Shown here: in pieces, positions 6,501 through 45,646 of the stretch | Numbering within the stretch: the first letter of the stretch is position 1 | How the letters are laid out: the number at the start of each line of letters is the position of its first letter | Source: a virus | Taxonomy: Duplodnaviria > Caudoviricetes | Length of the DNA: 46,759 bases | IMG/VR virus record: IMGVR_UViG_3300016667_000311 | Span: 1 to 46,759 of that record | Direction: 5' to 3' (one strand) | Translations under genes and position numbers: made by a program | The notes under the pieces: generated by a model | Seen by the model: the letters and a program-made list of their open reading frames with translations, nothing else | Database searches by the model: none | What the model was told of the DNA's origin: nothing

Positions 6501-6746
6501 TTAAGACTGGTCCGATTTAGCCTCTTCCCTGAGCCTTTGAATCTCAAGAAGCATGTCGTTGATTGCGTCCATCCTGCCAGCGGAGTGGATTCTGGCCTCT
6601 CCGAGGGTATTCGGAGACATCACCTTCGACATCTCGATTTGAAGGGCCAAGTCGCACACGACCAAGACGGCCTTGTAGAGGTCTTCTCCTTCGTGAGTCC
6701 TGAATTGGAAGGACTTCACGATTTTCTTACGTTCTTCGGACATCAT
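6501..6746 (-). CDS. Small helical protein after portal (hypothetical)
   Basis: 81 aa, overlaps the portal stop; a common position for a small gene in podovirus head modules. Confidence 0.65.
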   Translation of the reverse strand: MMSEERKKIVKSFQFRTHEGEDLYKAVLVVCDLALQIEMSKVMSPNTLGEARIHSAGRMDAINDMLLEIQRLREEAKSDQS

Positions 6747-23761: not shown

Positions 23762-24079
23762 TTAGCGATTTCTTTGATTTTTTCCATTACTGTTGATGAT
23801 TCCGATGATGAGGGAGATTAGTTCAGGGGTGGCAGAGCCGCAGGACGAATAGATGATGGCTTCGTAGATTGGCTCCACGTGACCATGCACTGCGAAGTAG
23901 CACAGGACGCCGACGATTCCTCCTGCTATGATACGCCTTACCCATAGCCACCAAGGAACATCCTCCCTCGTTAGAAGCAACCTGCAAAGTGCACCAGCGG
24001 AGCCAAGCATGGCCACAATCCAGCCGCCCTTCTTGAGGTCTTCGGCTGTCTGTAGGAGTCCGTTATCTGGAGGATTCAT
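23762..24079 (-). CDS. Holin (LydA-like)
   Basis: About 105 aa from MNPPDNG with 2-3 TM segments and a basic C-terminus. The start overlaps the giant gene's 3' end. Confidence 0.7.
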   Translation of the reverse strand: MNPPDNGLLQTAEDLKKGGWIVAMLGSAGALCRLLLTREDVPWWLWVRRIIAGGIVGVLCYFAVHGHVEPIYEAIIYSSCGSATPELISLIIGIINSNGKNQRNR

Positions 24080-27000
24080 CTTCGTCTTGGAGGGCTTCGC
24101 CCTGAGTGGGAATCTTGCGTCCTTGGGTAGTCTTGGAGAACCACTTGTAAATCCTAGAGAGAGTCTCAAGGGTGGCCGTATCAGCCTTTGGCTTACCTAG
24201 ACCGCCATCGGCTGGCATTAGGAGGGCAATGCCTTCGACAATCTTCTTCCTGAATGCCGCCTTGTGGGCTTCGCTGGGGAACTTGGGCTTGAACCTGAGG
24301 ACAGGACCGCCGCTGGTTGCAATGGTGGTCAGTGCGTTGCTAACGGCGTCCGAGTCGGTGACGTCCACCTTCATGACGTGCTTGAACCAAATCTTGTAGC
24401 CAAGTTGGGTGGACAAGTACCCAGTAGGCGACATGGGCTTGGTGGGTGCGTTGGCAAACGTGCCTCCTCCAGTTCCAGTAGCGGTGTTGCCGAGCAGATT
24501 GGGGGCTTGATTCCTGTATGAAGACCTTCTCTTTTGGATTCCAGTTGGGTCGAGACTGCCTTCATCGAATCCGAAGTGTCTGCTCCATTCGACATTGTCG
24601 GAGCCAGTGACGCTTCCATTGGAGTGTCCGAGCGTGACGTAGCCCCCGACGGGGCCCCACTGCTTAACGAACTGTCCGATGTAGGGCAGACTGCCGACGT
24701 ATTCCGAGTTCTGCAACATGGCCTCCTTGAGCATCTGAATGTCCCTGATTCCTTCCATGATGGTCTGTCCAGTCTTGGAATTGATGATGGCGTAGGTCCC
24801 GTCATCCCTGAGGACGGCGTTGGGCCTGATGAATGCGTCGGTGGCGAACTTCTGGAGGTTTTTCTTGGACTGGCCCCACATGATGGACTCCATGAACCAA
24901 GAGGGAGCACCATACTGGGAGACATAGCCCATGGCGTCGCCACGCTCGAACCAGAAGTGGTATCTTCCGATGTTGGCTAGGCCGTTGTCAATTGCTCTCT
25001 GGCTTCCATTCTTCTTCTCCCCGACGATTTGCTTTCCGTAGTACTGTTGCATGAACAGCGTGGACAGGTCCCTAGGCTTGAGGGGCTTTCCGTCTGGGTC
25101 TACTAGGAAGGAGTCTCCTTTAAAGGAAGAATCAGAGAAGGTTACCTCGTCCTTGATGCTTTCTATGTTACCATCAGAGAGTGCCTTCCAGACTTCCCTG
25201 AGTCCGTTATCGGCAGGAACGTCGTCAATGGAGATGCCTTCGGTGAACAGGTGAGGCATTGCATCCTTGAGGGTCAGCAACAGGTGTACGTTGTAGGGTG
25301 CATTGACCCCGTTGTGTTCGAACGCCTGTCTGTTTCTGAAATAACCCCTGAACTCATCTGGACCGAAGTTGGCCATTCTGGCCATGAATCCTCCGTGCAA
25401 CTGGTAGGTGAGCCAGTCAGGGAGCATGTTGAGGTATGACAACAGGAAAGCCTTAGGATTGTCCTGACCCATGTACATTATGTGCGACTGCCTTCCGACG
25501 AGCATGGCTGCCGCCGTATCCATGCTGTGGCCTCTGTTCACCTGATGTCTTGCGTCGGCATAGGTGATGGCACTGAGGCCAGCGTTGGCCGCTCTCATCA
25601 CAGTCCCGTTGAGCGAGATGGGCTTGTAGACGTCTTCGACGCCGAACGGAAGCGAGTTGAGGATGGCGGGGTCTCTTCCGCTGGGCATGACGGGAAGGAC
25701 CTTGGCCAGTTCCGTGATGTCCTTCTCGATTTGCTTAAGCCTTTCGGGGGCATCGGCGGCGGAGGACATCAGGGCAATCAGGGGCTGGACGCTGTTGGCG
25801 ACCATGTTGCCGAGAGCCGTGGCACCGACCCTGTACTGGAGGAAATGATTCATGTTCATCTCCTCGAACTCCTTCGTGCCGATTTCGAAGGTTCTTGTTC
25901 CAGCGATTCCGCTGGGTGTCTTGCCAACGAAGGTCTCCAAGTCATTGTTTACGCCTCTCTGGCTCGGGAAGAGTCTTCCGCCTACGCCGCTCTTGTAGGC
26001 ATGGGGAGGGGTGATGACCCTGAAAGATTCCTTGTTTGAGAAAACATGCTTCTGCAAGTCGTTGTACTCGTCCATCCCAGTGTATTGCCATTCCAAGAAC
26101 TTTTCATGGTCAACGATGATAGCAGAAGACCTGTTCTGCGGAGAAGAAATCCATTCTTCGTAGGAGTCCATGAGGGCGTCGAAGAACTTAATCTTGGCGT
26201 ACTTGGTGTAAGTATCCCCAGTCTCCCTGTTGATGATTTCTTCCCTTCTGGCCTTGAGCCTGTCCAAGGTTCTTCTGGCCACGGAGTCCCAGTCGATTCC
26301 CTTGTAGGGGAGGATGTCCTTGTTGGCCTTCTCGATTTCGATGGACTTGGAGATTACCTCTTCGTCGGCAAGTGCGGACAGGGCGAAGATGAGCGAAGGA
26401 GTGATTGCTCTGGACGAACTGCTGTAGTTGCCCATCTGGATTGAATTGAACGAATCTTCCAGAGAATGCATCCCTACCTTTTCGGGAAGCAGACCAGCCA
26501 ATACGCTCTGTCCTGCCACATACATGAGTTCGTTGGACACCTTCTGGGCAATCTCATGGCTGTACCCTTCCTTGCTCATGAAGCCGCCCTCCTTGTATTC
26601 CGAGATGTCTGGGAATTCGAAGACTGGGATTCTCGACAGGTTGTTCGTGTACTTCCTCATGTTCTCTGGTACTTCCACAGTTCTGCCGCTGTCAATCAGT
26701 CCGAGGTCAGTCCTGAGCAAGAATCTTTCGATTGGACTGAGCGAGCCGAGCAGTCTGACGGCGTAGTTGGCGTTTAGTTCGACGTCGCCGTATCCGTATT
26801 GGGACAACCTATGGATGTTGGTGCCAATCATGCCTCCGACATTATGTAGGACAGACCTCAACTTATCCCTGCTTTCTATCAGTTTGGCCATGTCTCCAGA
26901 ACGCTTGAATCCTTCCACCTGCTCCAAGGAATCTGGGAGTGCCTTTTCTGGCGTGCTTGGAACACCGAACGAATGGTACTGGAACGAGTCGGACTGGATT

Positions 27001-30000
27001 TCTTCGATGGCCAGCACGACCTCAGGGTCGTAGGTGTATCCGTAGACGGAATCTTCGGCGTGGTAATTAGGAGTCTTCGGGTCGCCGAATCCGTATTCGC
27101 CGCTCAGGATTGTCTGGGTAGTTCTGACGTGGCCAATCTGGAAAGTGCCATGGTCGTTATCGCTGTAATGGCCGAAATCGCCGAGCGTGTGGCCAGCCTT
27201 AATCATCTCTCTGACCTCGAACACCCTGTTGATGTTGCTGATGATGCTCTCGTACTTGGCTTTGGTCGCATTATCACTGGCTCCCTCGATTCTCTGCCTC
27301 AGGATTTTGACTGCGGCGTCACGCTCGGCCTTGATTCTCCTGTTGCTGTACTCGGTGAAGATAGGATTGGACTGGTAGTAGCCAGTGAACGAAGCCCAAG
27401 AAGAATGGTAGTTGCCTCCATGGTAATAGAAGTTCTGTGCCTGATAGAGCGGGAACAGGGGTGTGCTTGAGTCGTAACTCGAACTCATCGGACCGACCCC
27501 CTGATTGAGGGAAGTGGCGTATTGTCCTCTATCCCCGTTAGTCATGAGGACGGAGAACGGATTCACGTTGCTCGACGTATCTGCGTACTGGATAGAGTAG
27601 GGATTGATTAGACCCAAGTCGCCGATTGCGGTCTCGATGGTCCTGTACTGGTCCCCAGTCCTGCCGAAGATGCTGTCAGCCATGACGTACTCAAGGATGG
27701 CAGGTCTTACCTTTCTGCTCTCGCCTCGGTATCCTCCGATTGTGTAGGCGGTGACGTCCCTTCCCTCCTGATAGAGGTTCCTAAGGTGATTGATAGCCGT
27801 AGTAAGGTCCGTGAGTCCAGTCAGGGAATTGGGGGCACCCATCTCCGCCACAGTGTACTCGATGGACTTCATGATGGCGTTCTTCAACGCTTCTGCGTCC
27901 GCCCTCTTGGTATCGTCCTGCAATGACTCCTCGATGAGTCCAGCGACGGACTCTAGGTTGTTGAGGTGGGTCTTGATTACGAAATCCTCCTTGGTCTGAA
28001 GGTCTTCAAGGTATGGCATGTCATAGACTCCACTGAGAGAGCCAGTCTTGACCCTGCTTACCTCAGGGCCGATGTCTCTTTGAGTAGTTCTGGCCTGTCT
28101 GGAAGTCCTCGGGTATACAGTGTAGATGAACTCGGCCAAGTCCCTTCTAGTGAGGTGAGTTTCGGCGTTGTCGTGCAGGAGGTATGCGATGCCCGACATT
28201 CTGATTTCATCCTTGGAAACCGAGTTCTCCTTGAGGAACTTGAACCATTCAAGACCAGTCATGGAGTCAGGGTACTTGTCCCTTCCCGTCTTCCTCTTGC
28301 CGTAGGCCACGACTCGCATCATCTTGGACACGAACTCGATGGGGCCCTGACCGAAGCCGAAGTTAAGTTTACGTCTCAGCATGCCTTCCAGTTCTCTGGC
28401 GTCGGCGTTGCCAATCATCAGATTGGCCCTTCCTACCTCTACGGGCGGAATCTTGGTCTGAAGCACCGACCTGCTACCGAGGGCGGCGGACAGGGCGGTG
28501 GCCTCTGCCTTGGACAGGTTGAGGTCGAGGTCTCCGACAGTGAAGGTCCCGTCGTTGACCATAGCGAGGTTTCCAGCCTGACGCTCGGAGTATCCGAGGT
28601 GCTTGTTGGCCCTGACTGAGACATCGACGTTGTCGTTTTCGCTCATGACGCCGTCCTTGACTACGGCCTGACCAGAACCAGCGGAGACGAGTGCCTGAGC
28701 GAGGATTGCCTTGCTGGCACTGGTGCCGTACTTGTTCCTGAGTGCTTCCGCTTCCACCAAGGTCTTAACAGGGACGACCTTTCTGGAATACATGGGCTCA
28801 CCGCTATCGGTCACGCCAGTCTGGATGTCGTAGGTGACGAAATAGCCAGTGGGCTTGGCCTTGGGTCCTCTGTGGACGATGCTTACCCCGTTCGTTTCCT
28901 TGCCGTCCCAAGCGAACTGTTGCAGTTCGGGCCTGTTCGGGAACATGTGCTGGATGGATACGGCGAGGTCGCCGTTCTTTGCCAGATGCCTTTCTGCGTC
29001 GGGCAGGATGTATCCATGGTCGGCACCGACGGCGGCTGATGCGATGCGTTCGATGTCTGGAATGATGTCTTGGCTTCTGGAAATTATCTGGTCGGCACGT
29101 TTTTCGAATCCAGCCCTAGCCTCGTCTGGAGTCCTGCCGCCCTCCTTGATGGAATCACTTCCGCCCAAGGCGAGGATTTCAGGAATTTCTGTGGCGTTCA
29201 CAGTCCTGCCGATGTCGGGCACCCTCTGTCCCATGATTTGCTCGAGCCTAGACTGAGGCCCAGAGAGGTAGTAGGCATTGGAGCCGCTGAGTTTCAGAAG
29301 TTCCATGATTTTCTCCCCGTCGCCGAGGTAGGGGTTCATGTCACTGCCTTGTCTTTCGTACACCCTGTTCCAGATGCTCTGCATCAATTCCGCACCTTGG
29401 CCCTGAACCATCACCGCCATGAGCACGGCCTTAATCATGTCAGGGTTGGCCTCCTCAGGGCTGAAGGTAAGCGTGATGTGCTGTGCACCAGTCTTGTGTC
29501 CGTTGATTGCCAGTGCGAGAGCGACGACGTCTTTGTCGTTATGGGCGTTCTCAGAATTAACCAACGCCTCATAGACGTTGAAGTTGATGTAATTGCTGGA
29601 ATTTCTGATTCCCTCTCTGTTGGAGGAGGTTCCTTCATAGGAGGGCCTCACGGCGTCCCCATACTTCAGCCTGTTCCTAGCGGCGGCCACAATCTGCTTC
29701 CTCCAATCCTCTCCTCCGATTCTGAAGTATCTCTGCAAGCCAGCCGCACCCATTCCGCCAAGGGAGGCGGTCTGCATGCCGAACAGCGTGATGTAAGGAT
29801 TGGCGTTTGAGATTTCCCCGCTACGAGGGTCGTAGCCAAGGCTTTCCCTGATGCTGAACCCAGTCGGGAGTTTTTGTACCCTCGAAGGGTCTATCCTCGT
29901 CTGATTGCCCAGATAACCAGCCTTGTAGCCAGTGATGTCGCCGCTGATGTTGAGAACTAGGCTACCATCTTCCAGCCTCTTCCAAGCGAACCCTCTCATC

Positions 30001-33000
30001 GGCTCGGTAAGGGCCACTCTGGGCGGAACGATGTTCTGGGATGTTTGGGTGCCTGATTCGTTCTTGGTAATAAGGGTGTACGGGCCGAACAGGTTGTTGG
30101 ACACCCCATAGGCGTGTGCCCTGAAGGCGACACCTTCCCTAGAGCCAGCAGTACTGCTCTCAAAGTTTCTCTGGATGGAACTGCTGATTAATCTTCCGCT
30201 GAGCCTCATTCTGGCTGGCTCGATTGAGACAACGTCGGTCTTGGACTTGCGAGCCTGTCTGATGATGGAATCCACCATCTGCTTTCTGGTAAGTTTAGCA
30301 CTGACGGGCGAACCTCTCATGCCGACGTCGATTCTGGAAGCACCGATGACAGGCGACGATGTGTTCTGCGGTACGGCATTGACATCCGCCACGTAGTTGG
30401 TGCTCGTCTTGAGGGGGTCGATTGGCTCGAACAGGGATTCCGCAAGGCCAGTCTCAGTCGGCTCAAGAAGGTGATGGTCGTACACCCTGTCTCCGCCACG
30501 GAATTCGCTCGGAGTGCTGGCAAGAGAATGCACAGGGTCGCCAATGGCGGTGGTGATGTTGTGGCTATCGGTCAGCACCTTTTCGGTTCCGATTACGGCG
30601 AACACTCTTCTCGGGTAGACAGTATGGATGTCAGCGTAAGGCTTGTCAGGGAAGTCCTGAAGAAGGTTCTGCTTGTATCCGTTTCTGTAGTAATGCGGAT
30701 AATCGTGCTTGGACGGGTCCCCAGACTTGATTACAGTCCTGTATCCGCTCGCATGCTGGTCCATGAGCGACCACACTCCCAACAGGAGGTGTCTGTTGAG
30801 TTCATTGCCCATGATGCTACTGTACATCGCTTGCATCCAAAGTCTGCCAGAGTTGCCCTGAACGAGCCTAGTCCTTCCCATCGGACCTTCGCTGTTGCCT
30901 TTCTCAAAGAGGTATCTGCCTTCAGACAAATACTTGCCGATTTCTTCGACCAAGAGTTCCTTGGTGCCCCTGCCGAACATGGCGTCCATGGCTGGTGCTT
31001 CAGGGAGTCTGCGTATCATGGACATGGCCTCATAGGCACCGCAAAGTGCGGAGAACGTAATCTCAGAGTTGGCGGTGTCCAAGTGGCCGAACATCAGACC
31101 ATGCTGTTTCTCGCTGATGGACTGGAAGAATGCGTCGGAGGCGGCTTTTTGCTCAGGCGTCGGGGTGGAACCCGTGTCCATGGAGAAGTCCCTGTAGGCA
31201 TCTCTGGCGTTCTTGAGCAGTTGTCTCTGCTCTGGAAGAAGATGGTCAACGATAGTGAGTTTCCCGCTCCTGACGCCTACCTGCTTCGGGGAAAAAGCGG
31301 CGGCGATGAGAGGAGCCATGGCGGGGACGTACGAGGCGGCACTTACGTCCGATGCCCCATTGACGCCAGCCCTGAGGTTTGGCCAGTTCATGCCCCAAGT
31401 CTCGTAGAAATCCTTGGAAGCACCCAACGCCCCGTTGATTTCGGTATGCTTGCCCAATCTGGCCGTGCCCACGTAGACGGCGGAGTGCAAGGCATGGAGT
31501 CCGTTGACTGTGTTCTTCACTGATACGCTCTCATAGGCGGCGACGTTATCGAACGAGATTGCTGGCGTCGTGCTAACCCTGAACTGTTCTACGAAATCGG
31601 AAATCGGGGCAATGTATTCCAGAGGACTCTGGGTGCTGTCGCCTTCCCTGATTTCACCGAAAAGAACAGTTCTGACGGCGATGTCCCTAGCGATGAGGCT
31701 GGAGACGGCGGAGGTCACGAACGCTGGATTAGCCGCTACGGAGGGAACGCCGCTTCCGTCGAAGTAGGGCATGCTGACGAGGCCTTTCAGTTGCACCGAG
31801 GATACTGTATTGGCCGTCTTCGTCTCGCCGACGACGATGCTACCATCCTTGCCGACGTAGCCCTTGAGCAGGAAAGATTCCTGTGCGATTCTTTGTGCAA
31901 CTCCGTCGATGTAAGACTGTCCAGTGATTACGTTTCTGGACGGAGCGTCCGAATGGGATTCCTTGTTGTCTCCGATGAGAGAGGTCGTTCTTTCTTCGAC
32001 CTGTGAGAGCCTGCCTGAGATGTCATTAATCAGCCTGACCTTGTTCAACTTGTCGATGGTGGCCTCGCCGTCCCAAGCACTCTCAGCCATGTCGAGAATT
32101 TCACGTGCAACCCCAGCCAAATCCTTAGTGACAGAGATGATTTGATGAAGGTGTTCAAAGGTCCTATTGGACATCCTTTCTTGGTCGTGGGCATTTTCCC
32201 TGAATAAGTACCTCATCGTGCCTTCATCCCAAGTCGATGCGTCGTAGTTTCTGGATTCCTCTGAGCCACCCCTGACAAAGGTCCTGTTCTGCCTGTAGTC
32301 AGGCATGGTAGGTCCTACTGCCGTCTGGATGGTCTGGAGTTCGATGAATCCAGAGCCGCCGCTCAGGTCGTTTCCGCTACCGACGAGGGCCAAGGTCATG
32401 CCGAATCTTGCGGAAGGGCCCTTGCTGAAATCAGCCGCGAAATCACCAGCAGAACCACCAAGAATGACGCCCTGAGTGTTACTGAGGGATGAGGCGGAAG
32501 TGTATTCCCTCATTGCTTCGAGTTCAGGCTCAATCATCGCCTTGGTCATTTCGTCCAGAAGCCTCACTTTGATGTGTCTGGCGTTTTGGTCATTTGCACT
32601 GTCGATGACCCCCATGACACGCTCATAGAAGGGCTTAATCAGGAACAACTTTCTCCTGATTCTCTTGTTCATCTCGATGGCCAGAGCCTGTGCCGCCGAC
32701 ACTTCCGCATCGCCGAGATTGCTGCCCTTCATCGAAACCCTGTAAAAGAATGAGCCTTGATTGAAGTATCCCTTCTTTTCCAGCCTTTGAACGATGGCGT
32801 CGAAATCTTCATTGGACATCCATGTAGGCTTGGAGAATGGACTAAACTGTACTGTGTCAGACCTGAGATTCTGATTCTCTACGAAGTTAGCGATGCCGAT
32901 TCTGGGACCTCCTTCTGAACGAAGCGTGGTCTGTTCGCTCTCAGCCAAATCGAACATGGAGCCAGTCCTTTCGTAGATGAAGGAGCGTAGCGGGTCTGAT

Positions 33001-36000
33001 TCATGAGAGCCCTGTTGCTCGATTGCCGTGATGAGCCTTTCTGGGGTTACTTGAGACGTATCAATGTTGACTCCTCGGAACTTTTGAACGCCCTCGGTGG
33101 TGGACACGATTCTTTCGTTGACGTACTGCTTGTGGAATACGGCGAGAAGGTTGGCCAGTTCGTACTTGGTCAATTCCAGAGAGCCGTATTTTCTTGAGCG
33201 TCCGTTTTCCTCAACGAAGAAGGCACCGATGTTGGCCATGGTAATTCCGTCTTCGCTCACTCCCCTGTCCCTGAGGACCTTTTCGAGTTCGGATACCCTG
33301 ACGACGGACGGGAAGTCATCACGAAGGATGGCGTCCATCGCCTCGGTTGGAGTCCTGATTTCCCACTCATTGGTCACGATGCCGTCAATGATTCTGGCGA
33401 TGTCCTCCATGGTGACAGTCCTTTCGCCAGAGCCCCAGATTGCGTTGGTGACGTGCACCTTGTCTTCGTCGTCCAAATAGTAGACAGGACCCCTGCCAGA
33501 CTGCGGGTCGTCAGGAATGCCACTGACGATGTCTTCGCCCATCTTGCGGAATTCCTTCCTAGGCTTCTTCATGTCCAACTGGATGGTTGCCGTCTTGGCT
33601 ACCAGTTTGACGCTTCCGTCTTCCGCGACTTCCCAGCCCCTGCCGATGATTGCCACCCTGTCTAGGGAATCCAGTTCGTTCTTGAGTTGCCTGATGGTCC
33701 AAGAAATCAGGGAAGTCCTAGCCAGAAGGGAAATGACATCCTTGTTCCTGACGCTGTGGGACGGGTCCTTGCTACCGACGCCGCCAATCATGAGGTCAGC
33801 GACCCTGACTCTCTGCTTGTTCCTCAGTGCGATGCCGATGTTCCTGAGCGTGTTGCCCTTGTATCCGATGTCCATGGCACCAGAGATGGTGTCTAGGAGG
33901 GTTTTGCGTGAGCCGTCGGGATTGAGGCCAGTGGAATTCAGTTCGGCCTGAGTCATCCTAGACCTCTTTTCGGTCAGGTTGGCCTCGATTTCGTGACGCT
34001 GGCTGAGATAGTGCATGCCAGCGAGGTTGTTGAACACCTGCCTGAGTTTCGTGGAAGCGAGGATGACGTCCCCGTTAAGCCCGTCCCTTTCGGCCATCTT
34101 GGCTATGAACTCGAATCCGTCCAGTGCCTCGATGGAGCGATGAAGGTACTTTTCTACGTTATCGAGATGGTCGTACAGTTTGTAGCCGAGCACCGACTTA
34201 TCCAAGAACATGGAGTTCCTGACTTGGGTGATTCTCTTGATGAATCTGGAGGCCAGACCGCTGTCCAAGTCGCACATCATCGACTTAAATGCGTCCTCGC
34301 TGATTTCTCCCCTACTAAACCTATCGGCCAATTCCTTCGCCTCATTACGCATGGCGACAATGGACTTTACGGCGGACTCGGCGTTGCGTCTGGCGGGGTG
34401 GGCAGGAGGGTGATGGAGGTGTGCGTCGGTGAGGGCGTTGATTGCCTCGTTGCTGACCCTCATGAATGCAGGGTAAGCAATCTGACGCAGGTGCTTGTGC
34501 ATCGGGGTGTTGCCAAGCCTGTAGATGGACCTGAGCGTCTCGGCGTCCGAGAAATTGGTCGGGGCTCTGGTCGGGTCATCGGAGTAGATGAGAGTGCCAG
34601 CCTCGTTGACGACCTTTCCCCTGCCAGATTCGGCAATGGTCCTTCCAGCGACGCCAGAGATGTTGGCTGCCATGATGGGGCCGCCTACGGATTGGGGACC
34701 TGCGGTGAGTGCATACGAGTCTGTCCACATCTCACGCATCTGGATGGCATGCTGAATTTCGTGGAGCAGGGTCTCGGTGGCGTATCTCTGCCCTTCGTGA
34801 CCGAACGAAGCATGAGTCCTGTAGTCAGGACTGCGACGGCTAGACATCTCGTCGCCGATGAACGTGTCTATGCCAAGCCTGATGACGTCGCTGTCGGGGT
34901 TGTAGTCGGCACCATAGCCTTCCTTCCACTGCACGACCACGTTCTTGAGGCTCGGGTAATGCAGATAGAGCAACCTATGGTCCAAGATGTCGCCAAGTTT
35001 CACGGAGTTGGTGTCCATGAACACGGCATTGAGGCCCATCTCTGTGTTCCTTACGAACGTCTCGAAGCCCTTTTCCCCGTCTTCCATGAACGGAACGAGG
35101 TGCATCTTGCCGCCAACCTTTTCAAGCAGGAGGGTCGCATCCTTGTCAGAGAACTCGAAGGCCTTGTAAGTCCTGCCGCTGTCCGTCTTGACAAGACGCA
35201 TAGCACCAGTCTCAAGCATGTCCCGCTCCTTGGCGGTGGAATTAGTAAACCCACCGAGCATCAACTGACCCTTGGTTTCGTAATTTCTGGGAACAGACTT
35301 AGAAAGGTTGTAACCCAAGGCCTTGTATTGGTTCACCATTGCCGTGATAGCACTGGCTACCTTAGGCGTGTTTTTATGGTGACCGAATACGTCTCCTTTT
35401 ACGTTCAATGACGCACTTACGATAGAAGAGGTACTTGCCAGTGCTAACTTAGCCTTAGGATTGATGCCTTTTTTGGTGGGCTTGGTAGCAAGCGAGTCCA
35501 TCGAAGCATTGACGCCAGTGTGGATAATCTTTGCGTAACCCCTGTTGGCGATGGCTTTTGCGAAATCGTTGGGAGCAACGTTTCTCCAGTTCACGGGCAT
35601 GCTACCCTTGGCGGTAGCGAAGGTGCCCATCATCTTGGAGAAGTAGTTGTTAGGGTCGCCAGCGATTATGCTCTTGGCGATTTCGGCCATCATCGCACCA
35701 GTCGCCACGCCGTGCAGGTAGACTAGGTCAGCACTGTCTAGGCCCTTTGAGTAGAGCATTCTGGTGAACGCTTGCAGTCCCTGTGCCGTCCCGTCCTTGG
35801 CTTGGTCGAAAGGAATCTTGATGGACTTTGCGATGTCTTCGACGTGCGAGACGTGCCATCCAGTGTCGAAGTTCTTGTACATCGTTCCTCTTCCGCTGAT
35901 TCCAGAGAAGGGCACGATTCCCAAGATTGTGGCCTCAAGGTCCGTCGGCATCTCTATCTGGCCGTCTTGGCCCAGAAGAGTGTGCATCGGGTTTTCGAGT

Positions 36001-39000
36001 CCGCTTGCTGGGTCAGTGGTGAACGGCAAGACGACGCCCTTTGCGGTTACGGAGCCCATCAGGGTGAGTTTCTCGGTCACGACATACGTCTTCGAGCCAG
36101 CCAAATCGGAAATTCCAGTGAAAACCAACGTTTTCCCGTCCATGCCATGGAGGAATCTGGCCACCTGCTTGGGCGTGTCCGACCTCTCGGCCTTGAATTC
36201 GATTGGGTTGCCAGCAGGGTCGAACGCAGTAGGGAAGGAGCCAATAGTGTCCTTGGATGCGGCTACGTTTTCTGCGATGAACAGTTCCGTTCTGTGCTTT
36301 CCTAGGCTCTTGATGGTCTGCCTATCCCCCATCTTGGAGAACGCATGAGCGGCCCAAAGGTTTTCCTTGTATGCTTCGATGATGGCCGAGTAAGCCCCGA
36401 CCCTTTCCTGAACGCCGAAGGATTCGAAAGTGGGAAGGTTTTTCTGGTCGTGCTGGCTTAAGAAACTCTGGACGTCCGCAGGAAGTTCCCATTTGTCGGC
36501 ACGGACTTGTGCCACGAACTGAGGGCCAGCGGAAAAGACTCTTGCTTGCCCGTTGAGGAAAGATTCGGCAAGTCCTACGGCCCAATCGTTGAGCGAGACC
36601 TTGATTGGGTCTGGCATCAATGCGAGCAGGTCGATTCTATTGCCAGTCGCATCCAGAGACCTGCTTGTGGAGAACCTATTGAACAGGGCCTGAGCGTATC
36701 TAGGCAACTGTCCAAATCTGGTGTTAATTACGCCTCCGCTCACCCATTTAGGGATTTTTCCTGCGACGATTGGTTGCCCATTGGGGCCGAAGTCGGCGAG
36801 GATTCCGACAGCCATCTGGTCGTACATCTCATCCTGTCTGCCCTGAAGCCATGCGTCGAAGTTGGACGAGTCCTTTATTGGATACGTGGTGTCAGCGTTG
36901 AATTCGGTGTAGAAATGACCGAGTGTCACGCCAGACCTGTAAACAGACATGAAGTCTCCGTCCATGTCCGCAAAAGCGGTTCTAATCGCACCAGCCCTCT
37001 TGTTCTTGAAGTCGAGCAGTCCTTGGAGATGGATGCCCATGAGAGTGACAGTTGACTTTAGGTCGCCAGCGGTTGCGAAAGCATGCTCGGAAACCGCGAA
37101 CTGTCTCGCACCCTGAGGGCCTCCCATGAGGCCAGCGGTAAGACCGCCAGAGAAGTCGGACCTAGGGTCATAGACGACCTCAAGGAAGTCGAAAACGGGA
37201 CCAAGTGCCTTTCTCCATTCACCAGCATTGGACACCAATTTGCTAATCTTGATGGATGGGACGTCTGCTGGACCTTGGGTCTTCCCATTAATCCTTACGT
37301 CATGGACATGCTGTAGTATCTGTCCGTTGAACTTTTTGACTTCTAGGTCCCCGTGGTCGATTGCCAGCGGGAGGAATCTAGGACGCCCCCTGCTGTCGAG
37401 AGAAACCATCAGGTTCGCCGAGCCGCTATAGACGGCGGACGAATCCATAGGCTCCATGACGATGTCTTCCCTGATTGCCACATCGCCGAAGTCGTTGAGC
37501 GTGGGTGCCAGTTCGGCTGGATTGACTGTCTTGAGATTCTTTTCTACGGCTGACTGTGCTTTGGCGAAAGTCTTGAACACGCCGACAAGGTTGCCGAACG
37601 GATTGAACAACTTGAGGGAAGGTTCTTCCCCTCTGATTTCGTACCCGTTGGCGTCGGTGTAGAACCTGCGTCCGTTGTTGAGTTCACGCTGTACGAAGCC
37701 GCCGACCATGGCGTTTCTACGCATCGGCTCATAGGCGACGCCTTCCCTGAATCTGAGGCCCATGACCTGCCCTCTGAACGCCTCTGGGAAAATCTGGGAC
37801 TGTCTCTGGAGATTCGCCATGAGGTCGAACCTCAGGGAATGAATCGGGTAAAGAGGTCCGTCCCTGCCGCCAGCGTATCCTTCTGGCACGTTGATGTAGG
37901 ACTCGTCGTTGCGTTTTCTTCCGCCCCAAGTCTCGTACATGACATCTCTGACCCGTTCGGCATTCTTTCCGAATTCGGGCCTGAGGAACTCAGCCGAGGG
38001 CTTTCTCTGGCTCGGGTCCAAGGAGAACTGCTCGAACCATTCCAAGAAGGTCTCGGTGTAGTGTCCGAAGTCCTTGAACAGGGACTTGACGTCCGTCCTC
38101 TGCCACATGTTCATCTTGCGTCTGTTCAGGACGTTGATGTCCATGGCATGGACAGTGATGTGTGAACGTGGCGTCCTGAGCGGATTACCGAGTTCGTCGA
38201 ACTTGCTTACGATGAGTTCGATGTCGAATGGTGCGAAGTGTCTGAAAGTGATTGGTACCTGACGGCCTTTTAGTCTTTCTCCTAGGGCGGCTTCGACGAC
38301 CTGCTGGCTCCATCCGAGATACTGGGCGGTGAAGGTGTTGAACACTGGCTTGCCAGCCTCAACCTGCTTCATGACGTCAACCATGCCCTTGAGGTTGTTG
38401 AATTCCTCCCTAGAGTAGACGCCAGTGTCGTAGATTGCTTGCCAAGCCTCCTGATTGAGTTCCGTCAGTTTGATTCTCTTGTTCCCACCAGCGGAGGTCT
38501 GGAACTTGGGTCTTACGGACTCGGGAAGGGATTCGATTGCGGCGGCGATGGCGTCGGCGTCTTGCGTGATTTGCTCTTCGACCTCCTTCTTGTTCTTCAT
38601 CCTTCCTCCACTGAGGAATCTGGTCTTGTGGGCTTGCTTGAGGTAGGCCTCCTGTCTCTCTGGGGAGAGGGTGGATACATGGACGTCTCCGTATCTCATG
38701 ACGTCCCTCATCACCTGCGTTGACCACTTCTCAAGCATCGGGAACGCCTGATACTTCCCATCATCCCAGAAGATAGCCTCAAGGAGGGTGTCATACTCGC
38801 CTTCCTTGTTCCTGATTAGGACGCCAGCCGTCTCAAGGTCGTTGACCTTACGCTGGTTCATCAAGGTGAACCAGTTCTCCATGGTGGCCCTGATGGACTT
38901 GAACTGGGGATTCCTTAGGAATACGTCAGGGGACTTCAGGAGGAGGCTGTTCGACTGGTTGTAGGCGAAGGTCTCATGCATGAGCCTCTTGAGGAGGGGG

Positions 39001-41252
39001 AACTCCTTGAAGACCAGATAATCGGCTCCGCCCTGATAGTCCAAGTCAAACATCTTGACGGGGTCCTGCTTGAGCCTATCCCTGAGCCTTCTGATTTGTG
39101 CTCTGGCGTATGCGATGTTTCCGAAGTCTCTCATGACTATCGTGCCGAGGCCCTTGGTAGAGATTTGACTTCCTCCCACCACGACGGGATTGCCGTCCTT
39201 GTCTACGAAGTATGCGACTGGGGATTCATCTGGGCTTTCCAGCCAAGCCTTGGCCGCATTCTTGTCTCCGCCGAAGAGATGGATGTATCTCCCCATGCTG
39301 TAGTGAGCGATGAAAGCGGCGAGCACCTCGTCGGGGACGACGCCAGAGTTTTCTTCTCCGCCGATGAACGACCTGATTGCCTCCTTGGCGGAGCCGTCGT
39401 TTCTGCTGAAAAGGATGTCCAAGAACCTGTGTCCGTACTCATGCAGACCAGTCTCGGGAGTGGCGGCGTTCGGATTAAGCCAAACGTAACGCTTGCCGCC
39501 GAAATTGAGTTCACCGCCTTTTGCGTTATTGGCGGCGGTAAGGTCTGTGCCAAGTTCCCTGATTACCTCGACGAGTCCGAACTCCTTCACCAATGCGTTT
39601 ACGTCTGCATGCCTGACCTGAGTGTCAGGGTCGGTGTGCCAGCCCATCATGAACTGGGCCCTGACTGCGGCGGAGACTCTTGCGTCTCCCTTGGAGTCAA
39701 CGAACTTCAGGAACGAGCGTACGTTGTCGGCGTGTACTGGGCTGGACTTTCCAATCTCAAGGATGACCCCGTTGTCGAAGTTCTTGATGATGTTGGTCTG
39801 GGCGATTTCCTGAGAATAGACGTTATGGATGTGCCTGATGGCACCAGAGAAGCCACCCCAAGCGAAGCCCATGCCAGTACCCTGAGAAAAGCCCTCTCCT
39901 CTGGCGTTGAGCGAACCGAGGACGCCCATGTAAGCGGCGTCTCCGACGGCCCTCTTGAGGGCTGGGAAGGCCATAGATGCTGGCCATCCGACGACGACGT
40001 TGGCGAACTTGGCTACGGCCTGTCCTTCCTTGCTGAGCGGGATTCTTCCGCCATTCAGGGCGAGGCGACCCATCAGGTCTTGGCCAGCGTAAGCCGACGG
40101 GACCTTGACCACGCCTTGGGCGGCGTCAATTAATTCATTGCCGAGTACGCTGACATACTCAGCGATAGGCTTGACGCCGAGGGAGAACAGGACGCCTCTG
40201 ACAGGGGAGAGTTCCTTGCCACCAACGCTACCCGACACGTCCGTGAGGAAGGTGGAAGCCCCATTGGAAATCTCGTTAGGGATGTGTCCGACTCTGGACT
40301 CGATTTCGGCAGAGCCTCGGAGAATTCTCTCCTTGATGAATTCATACGGAGCAGAGGCTACGGCGGCGGTGCCGACCATCGTCTCCCCCGTGATTTTCAG
40401 GGACAGTTCCCTGAACTTTCTGGCGGAGTTGGAGAACCAGTCCTCGGTTGCGGCGGCGTTTTCGGCGGCTGTCTTGTGGAGGAGTTTGGAATCTTCCAAG
40501 GCATCGACCAACGCTGGGCCACCCTTGAAAGCCTTCACGGACGCCTTGAGTCCCTGCTTTCTGAAGGCGGATGCTATGAACTCAGGAGCGTCAAGGCCGA
40601 TGTACGAAAGGGCGTTGGCGAACTTGGGGTCAATGAGGCTTTTGGCGAACTCCTTGTAGTTGTCAGGCACCCAATGCTCCAGAATCGTGTCCCTGCCTTC
40701 CTCAAGTTCATTGCTCCTGTTGTTCCACCATCTGGCTTCGTTGAACTGCTTGATTCTGTCTTCTACAGTGCCAGTGCCCTTGATGAGGTCCTTGAACCTG
40801 AATAGGGGAGAGGAAGGGTCTTCAGACTGCCAAAGCAGTCCAGCCAAGTCTCTGGCGTCTCTCAAGATGCCGTCCGCAAGGGAGGCGACAGTCCTGTCTG
40901 GTCTGGTGGTGAATACGCCCTTGAAGATGTCTACGGGGACTTTTGCGATTCCGACAGCCGTCTCCTTGAGGAGATTAAGGGATACGTTGTTTCTTCTAGC
41001 GTTGGCTTCTTCAAACCTGAGATACAGTTCCCTTCCCTCCCTCGTCGTATGGTCGAAGGTCCTGTCCCTGTTTTCCTTGATGAAATCATAGATGTCATCG
41101 TTGGTCAGGGTGTACGGGTCCTCGTTGCCTTGCTCGGAATTAATCGAGGGTCTGGCAAGGTGCGAGAACTCCAGAGCCTCTCCGCTAGCAATCTGGCTAG
41201 CGGCTCTGTTGATTAGTTCTTCGGACGGGTCTTGGGGTTGGTTGGGTTCCAT
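24063..41252 (-). CDS. Giant 5,729-aa polyvalent-type virion/ejection protein with two HExxH metallopeptidase motifs (one LPD23-like)
   Basis: Uninterrupted 17.19-kb ORF at the end of the internal-virion block. HEYGH at 39429-43. LPD23-like KLGDILDH..LY..YPSL...LLHEIQHAIQ (34749-63)...HEIEA. C-terminal GHVR...IEEIQSD module. Confidence 0.9.
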   Translation of the reverse strand: MEPNQPQDPSEELINRAASQIASGEALEFSHLARPSINSEQGNEDPYTLTNDDIYDFIKENRDRTFDHTTREGRELYLRFEEANARRNNVSLNLLKETAVGIAKVPVDIFKGVFTTRPDRTVASLADGILRDARDLAGLLWQSEDPSSPLFRFKDLIKGTGTVEDRIKQFNEARWWNNRSNELEEGRDTILEHWVPDNYKEFAKSLIDPKFANALSYIGLDAPEFIASAFRKQGLKASVKAFKGGPALVDALEDSKLLHKTAAENAAATEDWFSNSARKFRELSLKITGETMVGTAAVASAPYEFIKERILRGSAEIESRVGHIPNEISNGASTFLTDVSGSVGGKELSPVRGVLFSLGVKPIAEYVSVLGNELIDAAQGVVKVPSAYAGQDLMGRLALNGGRIPLSKEGQAVAKFANVVVGWPASMAFPALKRAVGDAAYMGVLGSLNARGEGFSQGTGMGFAWGGFSGAIRHIHNVYSQEIAQTNIIKNFDNGVILEIGKSSPVHADNVRSFLKFVDSKGDARVSAAVRAQFMMGWHTDPDTQVRHADVNALVKEFGLVEVIRELGTDLTAANNAKGGELNFGGKRYVWLNPNAATPETGLHEYGHRFLDILFSRNDGSAKEAIRSFIGGEENSGVVPDEVLAAFIAHYSMGRYIHLFGGDKNAAKAWLESPDESPVAYFVDKDGNPVVVGGSQISTKGLGTIVMRDFGNIAYARAQIRRLRDRLKQDPVKMFDLDYQGGADYLVFKEFPLLKRLMHETFAYNQSNSLLLKSPDVFLRNPQFKSIRATMENWFTLMNQRKVNDLETAGVLIRNKEGEYDTLLEAIFWDDGKYQAFPMLEKWSTQVMRDVMRYGDVHVSTLSPERQEAYLKQAHKTRFLSGGRMKNKKEVEEQITQDADAIAAAIESLPESVRPKFQTSAGGNKRIKLTELNQEAWQAIYDTGVYSREEFNNLKGMVDVMKQVEAGKPVFNTFTAQYLGWSQQVVEAALGERLKGRQVPITFRHFAPFDIELIVSKFDELGNPLRTPRSHITVHAMDINVLNRRKMNMWQRTDVKSLFKDFGHYTETFLEWFEQFSLDPSQRKPSAEFLRPEFGKNAERVRDVMYETWGGRKRNDESYINVPEGYAGGRDGPLYPIHSLRFDLMANLQRQSQIFPEAFRGQVMGLRFREGVAYEPMRRNAMVGGFVQRELNNGRRFYTDANGYEIRGEEPSLKLFNPFGNLVGVFKTFAKAQSAVEKNLKTVNPAELAPTLNDFGDVAIREDIVMEPMDSSAVYSGSANLMVSLDSRGRPRFLPLAIDHGDLEVKKFNGQILQHVHDVRINGKTQGPADVPSIKISKLVSNAGEWRKALGPVFDFLEVVYDPRSDFSGGLTAGLMGGPQGARQFAVSEHAFATAGDLKSTVTLMGIHLQGLLDFKNKRAGAIRTAFADMDGDFMSVYRSGVTLGHFYTEFNADTTYPIKDSSNFDAWLQGRQDEMYDQMAVGILADFGPNGQPIVAGKIPKWVSGGVINTRFGQLPRYAQALFNRFSTSRSLDATGNRIDLLALMPDPIKVSLNDWAVGLAESFLNGQARVFSAGPQFVAQVRADKWELPADVQSFLSQHDQKNLPTFESFGVQERVGAYSAIIEAYKENLWAAHAFSKMGDRQTIKSLGKHRTELFIAENVAASKDTIGSFPTAFDPAGNPIEFKAERSDTPKQVARFLHGMDGKTLVFTGISDLAGSKTYVVTEKLTLMGSVTAKGVVLPFTTDPASGLENPMHTLLGQDGQIEMPTDLEATILGIVPFSGISGRGTMYKNFDTGWHVSHVEDIAKSIKIPFDQAKDGTAQGLQAFTRMLYSKGLDSADLVYLHGVATGAMMAEIAKSIIAGDPNNYFSKMMGTFATAKGSMPVNWRNVAPNDFAKAIANRGYAKIIHTGVNASMDSLATKPTKKGINPKAKLALASTSSIVSASLNVKGDVFGHHKNTPKVASAITAMVNQYKALGYNLSKSVPRNYETKGQLMLGGFTNSTAKERDMLETGAMRLVKTDSGRTYKAFEFSDKDATLLLEKVGGKMHLVPFMEDGEKGFETFVRNTEMGLNAVFMDTNSVKLGDILDHRLLYLHYPSLKNVVVQWKEGYGADYNPDSDVIRLGIDTFIGDEMSSRRSPDYRTHASFGHEGQRYATETLLHEIQHAIQMREMWTDSYALTAGPQSVGGPIMAANISGVAGRTIAESGRGKVVNEAGTLIYSDDPTRAPTNFSDAETLRSIYRLGNTPMHKHLRQIAYPAFMRVSNEAINALTDAHLHHPPAHPARRNAESAVKSIVAMRNEAKELADRFSRGEISEDAFKSMMCDLDSGLASRFIKRITQVRNSMFLDKSVLGYKLYDHLDNVEKYLHRSIEALDGFEFIAKMAERDGLNGDVILASTKLRQVFNNLAGMHYLSQRHEIEANLTEKRSRMTQAELNSTGLNPDGSRKTLLDTISGAMDIGYKGNTLRNIGIALRNKQRVRVADLMIGGVGSKDPSHSVRNKDVISLLARTSLISWTIRQLKNELDSLDRVAIIGRGWEVAEDGSVKLVAKTATIQLDMKKPRKEFRKMGEDIVSGIPDDPQSGRGPVYYLDDEDKVHVTNAIWGSGERTVTMEDIARIIDGIVTNEWEIRTPTEAMDAILRDDFPSVVRVSELEKVLRDRGVSEDGITMANIGAFFVEENGRSRKYGSLELTKYELANLLAVFHKQYVNERIVSTTEGVQKFRGVNIDTSQVTPERLITAIEQQGSHESDPLRSFIYERTGSMFDLAESEQTTLRSEGGPRIGIANFVENQNLRSDTVQFSPFSKPTWMSNEDFDAIVQRLEKKGYFNQGSFFYRVSMKGSNLGDAEVSAAQALAIEMNKRIRRKLFLIKPFYERVMGVIDSANDQNARHIKVRLLDEMTKAMIEPELEAMREYTSASSLSNTQGVILGGSAGDFAADFSKGPSARFGMTLALVGSGNDLSGGSGFIELQTIQTAVGPTMPDYRQNRTFVRGGSEESRNYDASTWDEGTMRYLFRENAHDQERMSNRTFEHLHQIISVTKDLAGVAREILDMAESAWDGEATIDKLNKVRLINDISGRLSQVEERTTSLIGDNKESHSDAPSRNVITGQSYIDGVAQRIAQESFLLKGYVGKDGSIVVGETKTANTVSSVQLKGLVSMPYFDGSGVPSVAANPAFVTSAVSSLIARDIAVRTVLFGEIREGDSTQSPLEYIAPISDFVEQFRVSTTPAISFDNVAAYESVSVKNTVNGLHALHSAVYVGTARLGKHTEINGALGASKDFYETWGMNWPNLRAGVNGASDVSAASYVPAMAPLIAAAFSPKQVGVRSGKLTIVDHLLPEQRQLLKNARDAYRDFSMDTGSTPTPEQKAASDAFFQSISEKQHGLMFGHLDTANSEITFSALCGAYEAMSMIRRLPEAPAMDAMFGRGTKELLVEEIGKYLSEGRYLFEKGNSEGPMGRTRLVQGNSGRLWMQAMYSSIMGNELNRHLLLGVWSLMDQHASGYRTVIKSGDPSKHDYPHYYRNGYKQNLLQDFPDKPYADIHTVYPRRVFAVIGTEKVLTDSHNITTAIGDPVHSLASTPSEFRGGDRVYDHHLLEPTETGLAESLFEPIDPLKTSTNYVADVNAVPQNTSSPVIGASRIDVGMRGSPVSAKLTRKQMVDSIIRQARKSKTDVVSIEPARMRLSGRLISSSIQRNFESSTAGSREGVAFRAHAYGVSNNLFGPYTLITKNESGTQTSQNIVPPRVALTEPMRGFAWKRLEDGSLVLNISGDITGYKAGYLGNQTRIDPSRVQKLPTGFSIRESLGYDPRSGEISNANPYITLFGMQTASLGGMGAAGLQRYFRIGGEDWRKQIVAAARNRLKYGDAVRPSYEGTSSNREGIRNSSNYINFNVYEALVNSENAHNDKDVVALALAINGHKTGAQHITLTFSPEEANPDMIKAVLMAVMVQGQGAELMQSIWNRVYERQGSDMNPYLGDGEKIMELLKLSGSNAYYLSGPQSRLEQIMGQRVPDIGRTVNATEIPEILALGGSDSIKEGGRTPDEARAGFEKRADQIISRSQDIIPDIERIASAAVGADHGYILPDAERHLAKNGDLAVSIQHMFPNRPELQQFAWDGKETNGVSIVHRGPKAKPTGYFVTYDIQTGVTDSGEPMYSRKVVPVKTLVEAEALRNKYGTSASKAILAQALVSAGSGQAVVKDGVMSENDNVDVSVRANKHLGYSERQAGNLAMVNDGTFTVGDLDLNLSKAEATALSAALGSRSVLQTKIPPVEVGRANLMIGNADARELEGMLRRKLNFGFGQGPIEFVSKMMRVVAYGKRKTGRDKYPDSMTGLEWFKFLKENSVSKDEIRMSGIAYLLHDNAETHLTRRDLAEFIYTVYPRTSRQARTTQRDIGPEVSRVKTGSLSGVYDMPYLEDLQTKEDFVIKTHLNNLESVAGLIEESLQDDTKRADAEALKNAIMKSIEYTVAEMGAPNSLTGLTDLTTAINHLRNLYQEGRDVTAYTIGGYRGESRKVRPAILEYVMADSIFGRTGDQYRTIETAIGDLGLINPYSIQYADTSSNVNPFSVLMTNGDRGQYATSLNQGVGPMSSSYDSSTPLFPLYQAQNFYYHGGNYHSSWASFTGYYQSNPIFTEYSNRRIKAERDAAVKILRQRIEGASDNATKAKYESIISNINRVFEVREMIKAGHTLGDFGHYSDNDHGTFQIGHVRTTQTILSGEYGFGDPKTPNYHAEDSVYGYTYDPEVVLAIEEIQSDSFQYHSFGVPSTPEKALPDSLEQVEGFKRSGDMAKLIESRDKLRSVLHNVGGMIGTNIHRLSQYGYGDVELNANYAVRLLGSLSPIERFLLRTDLGLIDSGRTVEVPENMRKYTNNLSRIPVFEFPDISEYKEGGFMSKEGYSHEIAQKVSNELMYVAGQSVLAGLLPEKVGMHSLEDSFNSIQMGNYSSSSRAITPSLIFALSALADEEVISKSIEIEKANKDILPYKGIDWDSVARRTLDRLKARREEIINRETGDTYTKYAKIKFFDALMDSYEEWISSPQNRSSAIIVDHEKFLEWQYTGMDEYNDLQKHVFSNKESFRVITPPHAYKSGVGGRLFPSQRGVNNDLETFVGKTPSGIAGTRTFEIGTKEFEEMNMNHFLQYRVGATALGNMVANSVQPLIALMSSAADAPERLKQIEKDITELAKVLPVMPSGRDPAILNSLPFGVEDVYKPISLNGTVMRAANAGLSAITYADARHQVNRGHSMDTAAAMLVGRQSHIMYMGQDNPKAFLLSYLNMLPDWLTYQLHGGFMARMANFGPDEFRGYFRNRQAFEHNGVNAPYNVHLLLTLKDAMPHLFTEGISIDDVPADNGLREVWKALSDGNIESIKDEVTFSDSSFKGDSFLVDPDGKPLKPRDLSTLFMQQYYGKQIVGEKKNGSQRAIDNGLANIGRYHFWFERGDAMGYVSQYGAPSWFMESIMWGQSKKNLQKFATDAFIRPNAVLRDDGTYAIINSKTGQTIMEGIRDIQMLKEAMLQNSEYVGSLPYIGQFVKQWGPVGGYVTLGHSNGSVTGSDNVEWSRHFGFDEGSLDPTGIQKRRSSYRNQAPNLLGNTATGTGGGTFANAPTKPMSPTGYLSTQLGYKIWFKHVMKVDVTDSDAVSNALTTIATSGGPVLRFKPKFPSEAHKAAFRKKIVEGIALLMPADGGLGKPKADTATLETLSRIYKWFSKTTQGRKIPTQGEALQDEDESSR

Positions 41253-42196
41253 TATCGACGCTGTACAGTGGATTGCATGAGGGCTCTACGCTTAGCATCC
41301 ATGCGTGTGTCGATTAGGTCCAATCCGTTGTTTCCTGCAACCTCCTTTAACTTCAGGAGCACGTTTTCTCTGGTGCTGTCGAGGATAGACATTTCATTTC
41401 CGCCGAGCCTGAAGAATGCGTTGCTCGCTCTCTGGGGAACCATGCTCTCAGCGATTGCCATGTCGTTGTCTGACACGTTGCCGCCCATGCCCTTCATGTC
41501 CTTCATGATGCTCAGGTAGTCCATCTTGAGGTTAGACTCGATGGCTCTGGCCATGGCTGAGTCATTGGAAGGGTCTAAAGAGCCAAGGTAGATGTTGTTC
41601 TTGTAGATTTTTTTCAACTGATTGGATAATGCATAGAACCTCTGCACCCTGCCAGCGAGGGTTCTGAATTCTTGAGCCTTCATGTCTCCGCCCTTAAACG
41701 CAACGGAGCGAACGCCCATTCTCTTGGCGATTGCCATGGCTGGGATGCTAGCACTTCCGCCATTGCCGTCTGGGACCGAATAGTTGCCCTTGGGAGACGC
41801 CAAGAAACTGAACTGACTCTTGTTTCCACGCTCATCCTCGTCTTCGAAGTCAAAGTTTTCCCCGATTTGGAAAAGAGCGGGACCTTTGCTCTTCATGATG
41901 GACTCGACGGCACTGAAATCTCCGATTCCAGCGTAGAACCTTGCGTCGTTAATCCTGAAATCTGCGTTCTGGCCCTCTCTGGATGCCTTTCTTTGCTCGG
42001 AAGCCATCTGTGCCCTAGCCTTAACGTACTGTTCGGTGGGCTCAAGGTGTGCAGACGGGTTGAACCCGAGCGACATGTTTAATTCCTCGATGCTTTTGGG
42101 GCGTTGGCTTTCTTGGCCAAACATCTGCCCAACTGTCAGGTTTGCCTGACCCTTGACGTCGTCGGCGTACTGGGAATAGTCGGTGTTATCTTCCAT
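41252..42196 (-). CDS. Probable internal virion protein
   Basis: 314 aa, helical, with a GGNVSDNDMA motif; directly upstream of the giant gene. Confidence 0.65.
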   Translation of the reverse strand: MEDNTDYSQYADDVKGQANLTVGQMFGQESQRPKSIEELNMSLGFNPSAHLEPTEQYVKARAQMASEQRKASREGQNADFRINDARFYAGIGDFSAVESIMKSKGPALFQIGENFDFEDEDERGNKSQFSFLASPKGNYSVPDGNGGSASIPAMAIAKRMGVRSVAFKGGDMKAQEFRTLAGRVQRFYALSNQLKKIYKNNIYLGSLDPSNDSAMARAIESNLKMDYLSIMKDMKGMGGNVSDNDMAIAESMVPQRASNAFFRLGGNEMSILDSTRENVLLKLKEVAGNNGLDLIDTRMDAKRRALMQSTVQRR

Positions 42197-45641: not shown

Positions 45642-45646
45642 GTTAG

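Follow-up and report, generated by a model that had tools for sequence, protein, structure and literature searches.

A recurring junction word in a giant phage protein as a likely cut site for its own N-terminal zinc-protease-like domain

Results

Genes at the locus and the six junction words

We analyzed a 46,759-base phage stretch (IMG/VR record IMGVR_UViG_3300016667_000311), called the window throughout, and studied a giant polyvalent-type protein encoded in it, along which a short word centered on a Met anchor recurs six times. The giant open reading frame (ORF) occupies 24063..41252 on the minus strand (5,729 amino acids (aa), ~633 kDa) and is the last large gene of the structural run. 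It is encoded among virion genes: family matches on the same strand identified the terminase large subunit (9166-10809, Pfam and PHROG), a scaffold-like protein and the major capsid protein. The plus strand carries replication and recombination genes according to the Pfam and PHROG scans. With the contig taken as a circle, the giant gene would complete the structural run of the minus strand. The capsid protein matched 47 phage records, each at <60% identity. The giant protein joins disparate parts (seven segments, two zincins), and its full-length homologues have 5,600-6,500 aa. Neither Pfam nor PHROGs gave a family at the cut-offs when it was searched as four pieces, and 32 smaller pieces of the protein and its homologues gave no Pfam match at the cut-offs. 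No RNA polymerase family was matched in it.

All six words lie on the minus strand, in frame, within this one ORF. Site 1 is RNAMVGG (37698..37718; residues 1179-1185, anchor Met1182). Site 2, ANLMVSL (37398..37418; residues 1279-1285, anchor Met1282), begins a variable 716-aa segment. They are followed by site 3, GQLMLGG (35250..35270; residues 1995-2001, anchor Met1998), site 4, ADLMIGG (33780..33800; residues 2485-2491, anchor Met2488), and site 5, ANLMIGN (28407..28427; residues 4276-4282, anchor Met4279). Site 6, ALLMPAD (24207..24227; residues 5676-5682, anchor Met5679), is located 50 residues before the C-terminus. A first-pass annotation of the window had listed the same words as candidate cleavage or delivery signals; its positions held, but three of its ranges were one codon short.

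The pattern LM[IVL]G[GN], picked after the fact, was seen three times in the giant protein as compared with 0.026 in shuffles, and 0/2000 shuffles reached three. The enrichment was borne out by homologue profiles. A family-wide profile scan, trained on the six sites themselves, yielded exactly six top peaks, corresponding to the six sites, with a sixth versus seventh peak of 14.1 versus 6.0 in the Met lineage and 9.9 versus 5.9 in the Ser lineage. In the leave-one-site-out calculation, which ranks the held-out site among ~5,700 positions, the median rank was 1 for sites 1-5 and around tenth for site 6 in the Met lineage (17 proteins), while ranks of 1 to 6.5 were obtained in the Ser lineage (28 proteins). 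In the window alone, sites 2 and 6 were weak, ranking 10th and 6th among 169 Met positions under the other-lineage profile. ALLMPAD, the weaker site of the first-pass annotation, was nevertheless confirmed by the homologues, which have PLMSVKG-type words in register at site 6. All 16 full-length homologues of the first set kept the word at all six places, and at sites 2 and 3 it forms an island between flanks of only 20-35% identity. Synonymous codons vary among the six sites of the window; therefore, the signal resides in the peptide. The six sites scored 14.0-20.3, whereas the best score in the 24 other window ORFs (7,414 aa) was 11.4, which limits the signal to the giant protein. The 11.4 score belongs to IGMMMLGNE around residue 638 of a 746-aa ORF (6743-8983, minus strand), which lies between the terminase and the scaffold and is, by position only, probably the portal.

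Concerted change of the word in close homologues

The close family comprised 46 full-length homologues, with the partial P0018 and P0024 excluded. Hand placement was applied to site 2 of the Ser lineage and of P0048, moved by a fixed 5 residues off the aligned column, and to site 5 of P0048, moved by 2 residues. One lineage had Met as the anchor at 97% of its site cells, and the second had Ser at 96%. Fixed differences were displayed by 134 of the 448 columns that both main lineages conserve; only four of these were Met-to-Ser, and all four were anchors (sites 1, 3, 4 and 5, sites 2 and 6 being displaced by alignment shifts). The within-protein agreement of the anchors (D = 0.317; 19 representatives of <60% identity, only 3 of them from the Met lineage) was reached by 0/3000 random and 0/3000 matched column sets. 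Agreement above all 3000+3000 sets was also found at offsets -2, +1, +2 and +4, and the 15 Ser-lineage representatives alone again exceeded all sets at these four offsets. Loci from two collections revealed that the Met lineage has a second sub-lineage, whose words are N[LM]MVGG-like. These results confirmed that the six words are a junction code that co-evolves across lineages. Since they change together across phages, the word likely marks the places of cutting. The anchor Met residues were also considered as internal translation starts; this was rejected, as the Ser lineage lacks Met there.

The word at cargo borders in distant relatives

A profile of residues 480-1300 retrieved 130 proteins. 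Out of 75 distant proteins of ≥1,500 aa, 54 had a site 1 mappable 430-620 residues after the HExxH motif, and 21 were dropped. Site 1 is the only site traceable into these relatives, mostly as RN[FW]-X-[PV] with X often M, S, Q or K: X was Lys in 17 proteins, Gln in 16, Met in 10, Ser in 8, His in 2 and Arg in 1. The word table covers 51 of the 54, the three with His or Arg anchors being left out. The proteins' own word, [FWY]-X-P, occurred 4-10 times more often than expected, with observed/expected counts of 19/1.9 for Met, 21/4.5 for Ser, 50/4.9 for Gln and 41/11.1 for Lys.

Pfam matched 11 of the 19 distant relatives scanned, and the families were GNAT, ART-PolyVal, LPD23, LPD37 and DUF6782. 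None of 40 own-word sites fell inside the 17 Pfam cargo matches of these 11 proteins, where 4.1 were expected. One own-word site fell on the first residue of a Pfam match, and in P0138 and P0139 the LPD23 match starts at the junction word. In 18 of the 45 distant relatives having a later site, the last one was located 51-70 residues from the end.

The segment following site 1 (37407-37706, minus strand; residues 1183-1282) contains a small strand-strand-strand-helix unit, and a similar strand-rich unit forms the C-terminal tail past the last site in the distant relatives P0067, P0079, P0096, P0105, P0115 and P0138. The tails beyond site 6 are longer in P0049, P0053 and P0036. By precomputed assignment, P0036 has helix-turn-helix Pfam families, and the P0049 tail looks alike; DNA-binding cargo added in this way may thus be set free at the last site.

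The N-terminal zincin

Residues ~490-775 (38928..39785, minus strand) form a zincin-like domain that the first-pass annotation had overlooked, which we term MPTase-1 (MPTase, metallopeptidase). It is predicted to consist of three strands, a helix with HEYGH at 604-608 and a Glu760 helix, and its conserved zinc-binding motifs comprise His604, Glu605, His608 and Glu760. The domain belongs to the module common to the window protein and all its relatives, and it co-occurs with the code. The His-Glu pair was present in 60 of the 62 full-length rows; one exception is N-truncated and the other, P0056, has Asp. The motif takes the HExxxH form in 34/35 Ser-lineage rows and the HExxH form in 26/26 complete Met and Gln rows. 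Fragment P0144 also has His-Asp instead of His-Glu in the N-terminal zincin.

The model of residues 480-1300 (34 rows) had a mean predicted local distance difference test (pLDDT) score of 74.9 and contained zincin-type elements, three strands and two helices, with the three strands ahead of the HExxH helix modeled at pLDDT ~80-90. In this model, site 1 was a coil with pLDDT <50 between two confident domains. The model of residues 1960-2520 (33 rows, mean pLDDT 61.1) likewise placed site 3 in a coil with pLDDT <50. Linker confidence was judged at these two sites; low confidence at sites 2 and 4 is uninformative because they are too near the ends of the folded fragments. The check suggested in the first-pass annotation, that the motifs sit in low-confidence linkers, came out in its favor at sites 1 and 3, the two that could be judged.

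The tree of 82 N-terminal modules requires at least 17 changes of the anchor. Among 537 columns, the one best associated with the anchor (z = 11.7, 51 distant rows) immediately precedes the conserved Gly in the predicted edge strand, which lies ahead of the HExxH helix. In the window protein this residue is Lys578 (39519..39521, minus strand). It is acidic in 15/17 Lys-word proteins as compared with 3/34 other distant proteins. The column tracks the anchor itself (z = 10.8), not the offsets from -3 to +3 (z at most 3.7).

Other segments of the chain and neighboring ORFs

The 490-aa segment between sites 3 and 4 (33789..35258, minus strand) has an LPD23-related start and a second zincin, MPTase-2, with a long helical insert. 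Its motif is HEIQH at 2164-2168 (His2164, Glu2165, His2168) together with Glu2421; HExQH was found in 62/62 full-length rows, and the Glu helix was kept in the 46 inspected. The first-pass annotation had named an LPD23-like peptidase here. Neither the window segment nor 13 homologous segments matched LPD23 (PF18838) in Pfam at E up to 1, but profile comparison aligned 112 columns of the segment with LPD23-zincin modules from three relatives (probability 98.4, E = 4e-15). Searching solved sequences with the segment gave nothing relevant. Foldseek found no match at E 0.001 for the MPTase-1 and site 3-4 models, the best for the MPTase-1 model being E = 0.09. In a wide structural search, the site 3-4 model matched only helical bundles from the insert; for this reason, the MPTase-2 fold is unconfirmed by structure. 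An LPD23-type MPTase-2 is present in only 3 of the 54 distant relatives carrying the code. Because the other 51 lack it, MPTase-2 is probably cargo, and the N-terminal zincin is the better candidate for the processing protease. The peptidase between GQLMLGG and ADLMIGG was the processor proposed in the first-pass annotation, and the same 51 relatives speak against that assignment.

A conserved domain at residues ~940-1180 (37713..38435, minus strand) bears a weak resemblance to WYL proteins (Z = 4.3-4.7, root mean square deviation (rmsd) 2.8-3.9, 82-100 aligned) and had no Pfam match. The matches included PafBC, BrxR, CapW and DriD, and nowhere is the N-terminal module more conserved than in this domain. 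It adjoins the zincin, which has a weak likeness to PprI and CapP.

The 716-aa segment between sites 2 and 3 (35259..37406, minus strand) is the most variable and, as one block, is exchanged within the Met lineage; it has no family match. Its start (residues 1331-1389) showed a weak likeness to the MPTase-2 strands (E = 0.004) in a form lacking HExxH, and perhaps represents a dead zincin. The 1,791-aa segment between sites 4 and 5 (28416..33788, minus strand) and the 1,400-aa segment between sites 5 and 6 (24216..28415, minus strand) share a 74-column unit (residues 2632-2712 versus 4305-4385, probability 64.5, E = 6e-5), and these two largest segments may be diverged duplicates. A conserved EEIQSD occurs in the latter at residues 4750-4755 (nt 27005-26988), and this segment had no family match. 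The segment itself does begin just after ANLMIGN, as the first-pass annotation said of the EEIQSD module, but EEIQSD lies 471 residues downstream of that word. The ESM Atlas gave no usable match for the site 5-6 or the site 2-3 segment.

In the mosaic analysis of the Met lineage, the two strongest switches were found near 1975 and 1255 (sites 3 and 2), and there was no peak at sites 4 and 5. The Ser-lineage profile was noisy, with only site 4 standing high. Mosaic breakpoints thus support sites 2 and 3 only, and in the Met lineage only. In locus L001 of a relative (11293-11305), the giant gene shifts frame at residue 2432, in the last helix region of MPTase-2, through either an assembly error or a real break. 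This split was considered as a break at a site and rejected, the frame change being away from the sites.

Directly before the giant gene, at 41252-46555 on the minus strand, there are five ORFs of 302-504 aa that had no Pfam or PHROG match at the cut-offs. They are candidates for further internal or ejected proteins.

Discussion

A likely self-cutting code

Judged from the sequences, the words are likely the cut sites of the protein's own N-terminal zinc-protease-like domain. The zincin would cut the giant protein at the six words into separate units, with the cut predicted just after Met, for example ANLM/IG. The concerted drift of the word would arise because one enzyme reads all the sites. 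In the available text of PMC3985423 on collagenase G, the non-prime side of the substrate is read by the edge strand, whose first residue shapes the S1 pocket. If residue 578 maps onto this S1 residue, the anchor would be P1 and the cut would fall after it; by our analysis, a cut after the anchor is somewhat favored over a cut before it. A complete digest would release pieces of 1182, 100, 716, 490, 1791, 1400 and 50 residues (132, 11, 78, 55, 196, 156 and 6 kDa). Such a design would allow many activities to be carried as one packaged chain and then freed as separate units. Packaging into the particle and injection are suggested by the gene position and by the available text of PMC5512222. We infer the proteolysis itself, the cut and its register, and also when it would happen, whether in the head or following entry.

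The idea that the module borders signal self-processing was already present in the first-pass annotation. It gained from the concerted change and from the words lying between the cargo domains of relatives, but not with the peptidase named there.

Several observations weigh against cutting by MPTase-1. In P0056, a full-length Ser-lineage protein, Asp replaces the catalytic Glu, and every aligned site still has the word. The tree-aware test of the edge-strand column had only 5 independent pairs, 3.6 changing in the same way and 0.1 in the opposite way (p = 0.125). In the close family, this column does not sort with Met, Ser and Gln; the window protein has Lys there, whereas distant Met-word proteins have Ala, Ser or Asn. 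Fold matches of MPTase-1 are zincins, but weak ones (best Z = 5.9, rmsd 4.6, 147 aligned). The third lineage of the close family has Gln anchors mixed with Met, and its site 2 is unclear. In distant relatives, the words of other proteins occurred mostly around expectation, with the largest excesses at 16/7.0 (the Ser word in Gln proteins) and 7/3.0. The distant set was selected for HExxH ahead of site 1, which limits the test for co-loss of word and protease. Among 50,697 phage records, the N-terminal module had no cultured relatives. The N4 virion RNA polymerase, which bears such a domain, is packaged uncut (available text of PMC5512222).

Alternative explanations

We regard it as unlikely that the word is a docking or threading signal, bound and not cut, that grips each module in turn during packaging or ejection; the reader of such a signal could be the N-terminal module, the ejection channel or a packaging chaperone. 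Concerted change requires one reader, cutter or not, and P0056 with its His-Asp retains the word. Crassvirus cargo partly unfolds as it passes the tail (available text of PMC10172136), and the strand-strand-strand-helix unit after site 1, found also after the last site in distant relatives, would suit docking as well. However, the best covarying column lies at the zincin's predicted substrate-binding strand, and almost every row retains the catalytic Glu. The short distances, with site 6 lying 50 residues from the C-terminus and sites 1 and 2 being 100 residues apart, would also fit the release of pieces better than threading. Cutting by a different enzyme, be it MPTase-2, another phage protease or a host protease, seems quite improbable. 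The invariant HExQH and the maintained Glu helix show MPTase-2 to be well kept, and the close family could use both zincins. Its active-site helix, however, stays constant while the word switches, and it is missing from nearly all code-bearing distant relatives. No protease family was matched in the scans of window ORFs, which covered 33 pieces for Pfam and 30 for PHROGs, and the motif signal does not extend beyond the giant protein.

It is very improbable, and largely refuted, that the word is a structural relic, either the first strand at the start of repeated LPD23-like modules or a DNA crossover patch homogenised by module swaps. The LPD23 matches that begin at the word in P0138 and P0139 and the Met-lineage mosaic peaks near sites 2 and 3 would suit such an origin. 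On the other hand, the segment starts after the six sites are not homologous, the synonymous codons differ, and sites 1 and 3 are predicted coils; sites 4 and 5 have no Met-lineage mosaic peak, and the Ser lineage is high at site 4 only. A relic also leaves the covariation of the zincin column unexplained. The post hoc choice of the pattern and the weakness of sites 2 and 6 in the window alone might hint at chance resemblance, but the homologues refute it, and we consider its probability negligible.

Relation to known systems

Polyvalent proteins were defined by Iyer et al. (2017; PMC5512222), who described the MPTase as a hub and proposed that it processes the chain into units. The available text of that paper names no recognition site or linker word, and its supplementary files may bear on this; nor does that text say which MPTase copy acts. 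The window protein resembles the phage polyvalent proteins described there in being very large and multidomain and in having two zincin-like domains (HExxH/HExxxH and a Glu helix with a long insert) and a module related to LPD23 by profile comparison. Relatives with the same N-terminal module carry the polyvalent GNAT, ART-PolyVal, LPD23 and LPD37 domains. Unlike the proteins described in that text, however, the window protein has six mapped sites, a lineage-specific word and an N-terminal MPTase copy that is singled out, and its own modules match no Pfam or PHROG family.

Our literature search, which left subscription journals mostly outside its coverage, found no recurring junction word for such proteins. 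Giant ejected proteins are described without such a code in the available texts of PMC13434306, PMC10172136, PMC9024508 and 10.64898/2026.04.10.717836. According to the texts available, the coliphage N4 virion RNA polymerase is also a giant protein with a HExxH zincin-like domain and is ejected (PMC13434306, PMC5512222), but its uncut packaging differs from the cutting predicted for the window protein. DarA and DdrB of phage P1 and gp47 of phi24B are packaged into the head, and some are processed (accessible parts of PMC5512222, PMC9024508 and 10.64898/2026.04.10.717836). The phi24B gp47, a polyvalent protein of the virion with 2,811 aa, has a metallopeptidase domain, for which the authors suggest a cell-wall role. 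Unlike the window protein, DarA, DdrB and gp47 have no repeated site described in these texts.

As in the gluzincins, represented by clostridial collagenase G (available text of PMC3985423), MPTase-1 has HExxH, Glu as the third ligand and a predicted edge strand, but its substrate would be its own chain. Its structural neighbors are PPEP-2, PprI/IrrE and CapP, all weak (Z = 4.5-5.9).

Implications

Two further readings are more tentative. It is possible, though doubtful, that the family consists of retunable site-specific proteases in which the enzyme has repeatedly switched in step with all of its sites, with the edge-strand residue helping to set the pre-cut residue and new cargo being captured between two words. 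Under such retuning, Glu at the edge strand would go with Lys words and other residues with Met, Gln and Ser words. It is improbable that the WYL-like domain senses nucleic acid and switches the cutting on at ejection.

Self-cutting of polyvalent proteins has been proposed since 2017 without named sites. The present family supplies exact candidate sites and fragment sizes, two in-chain proteases to choose from and a residue pair that could be swapped, so the standing proposal is directly testable. Domain borders follow from the word as well, both for this 633-kDa protein, which family libraries leave unannotated, and for about a hundred relatives. Should the specificity switch prove true, the family would be a source of orthogonal sequence-specific proteases.

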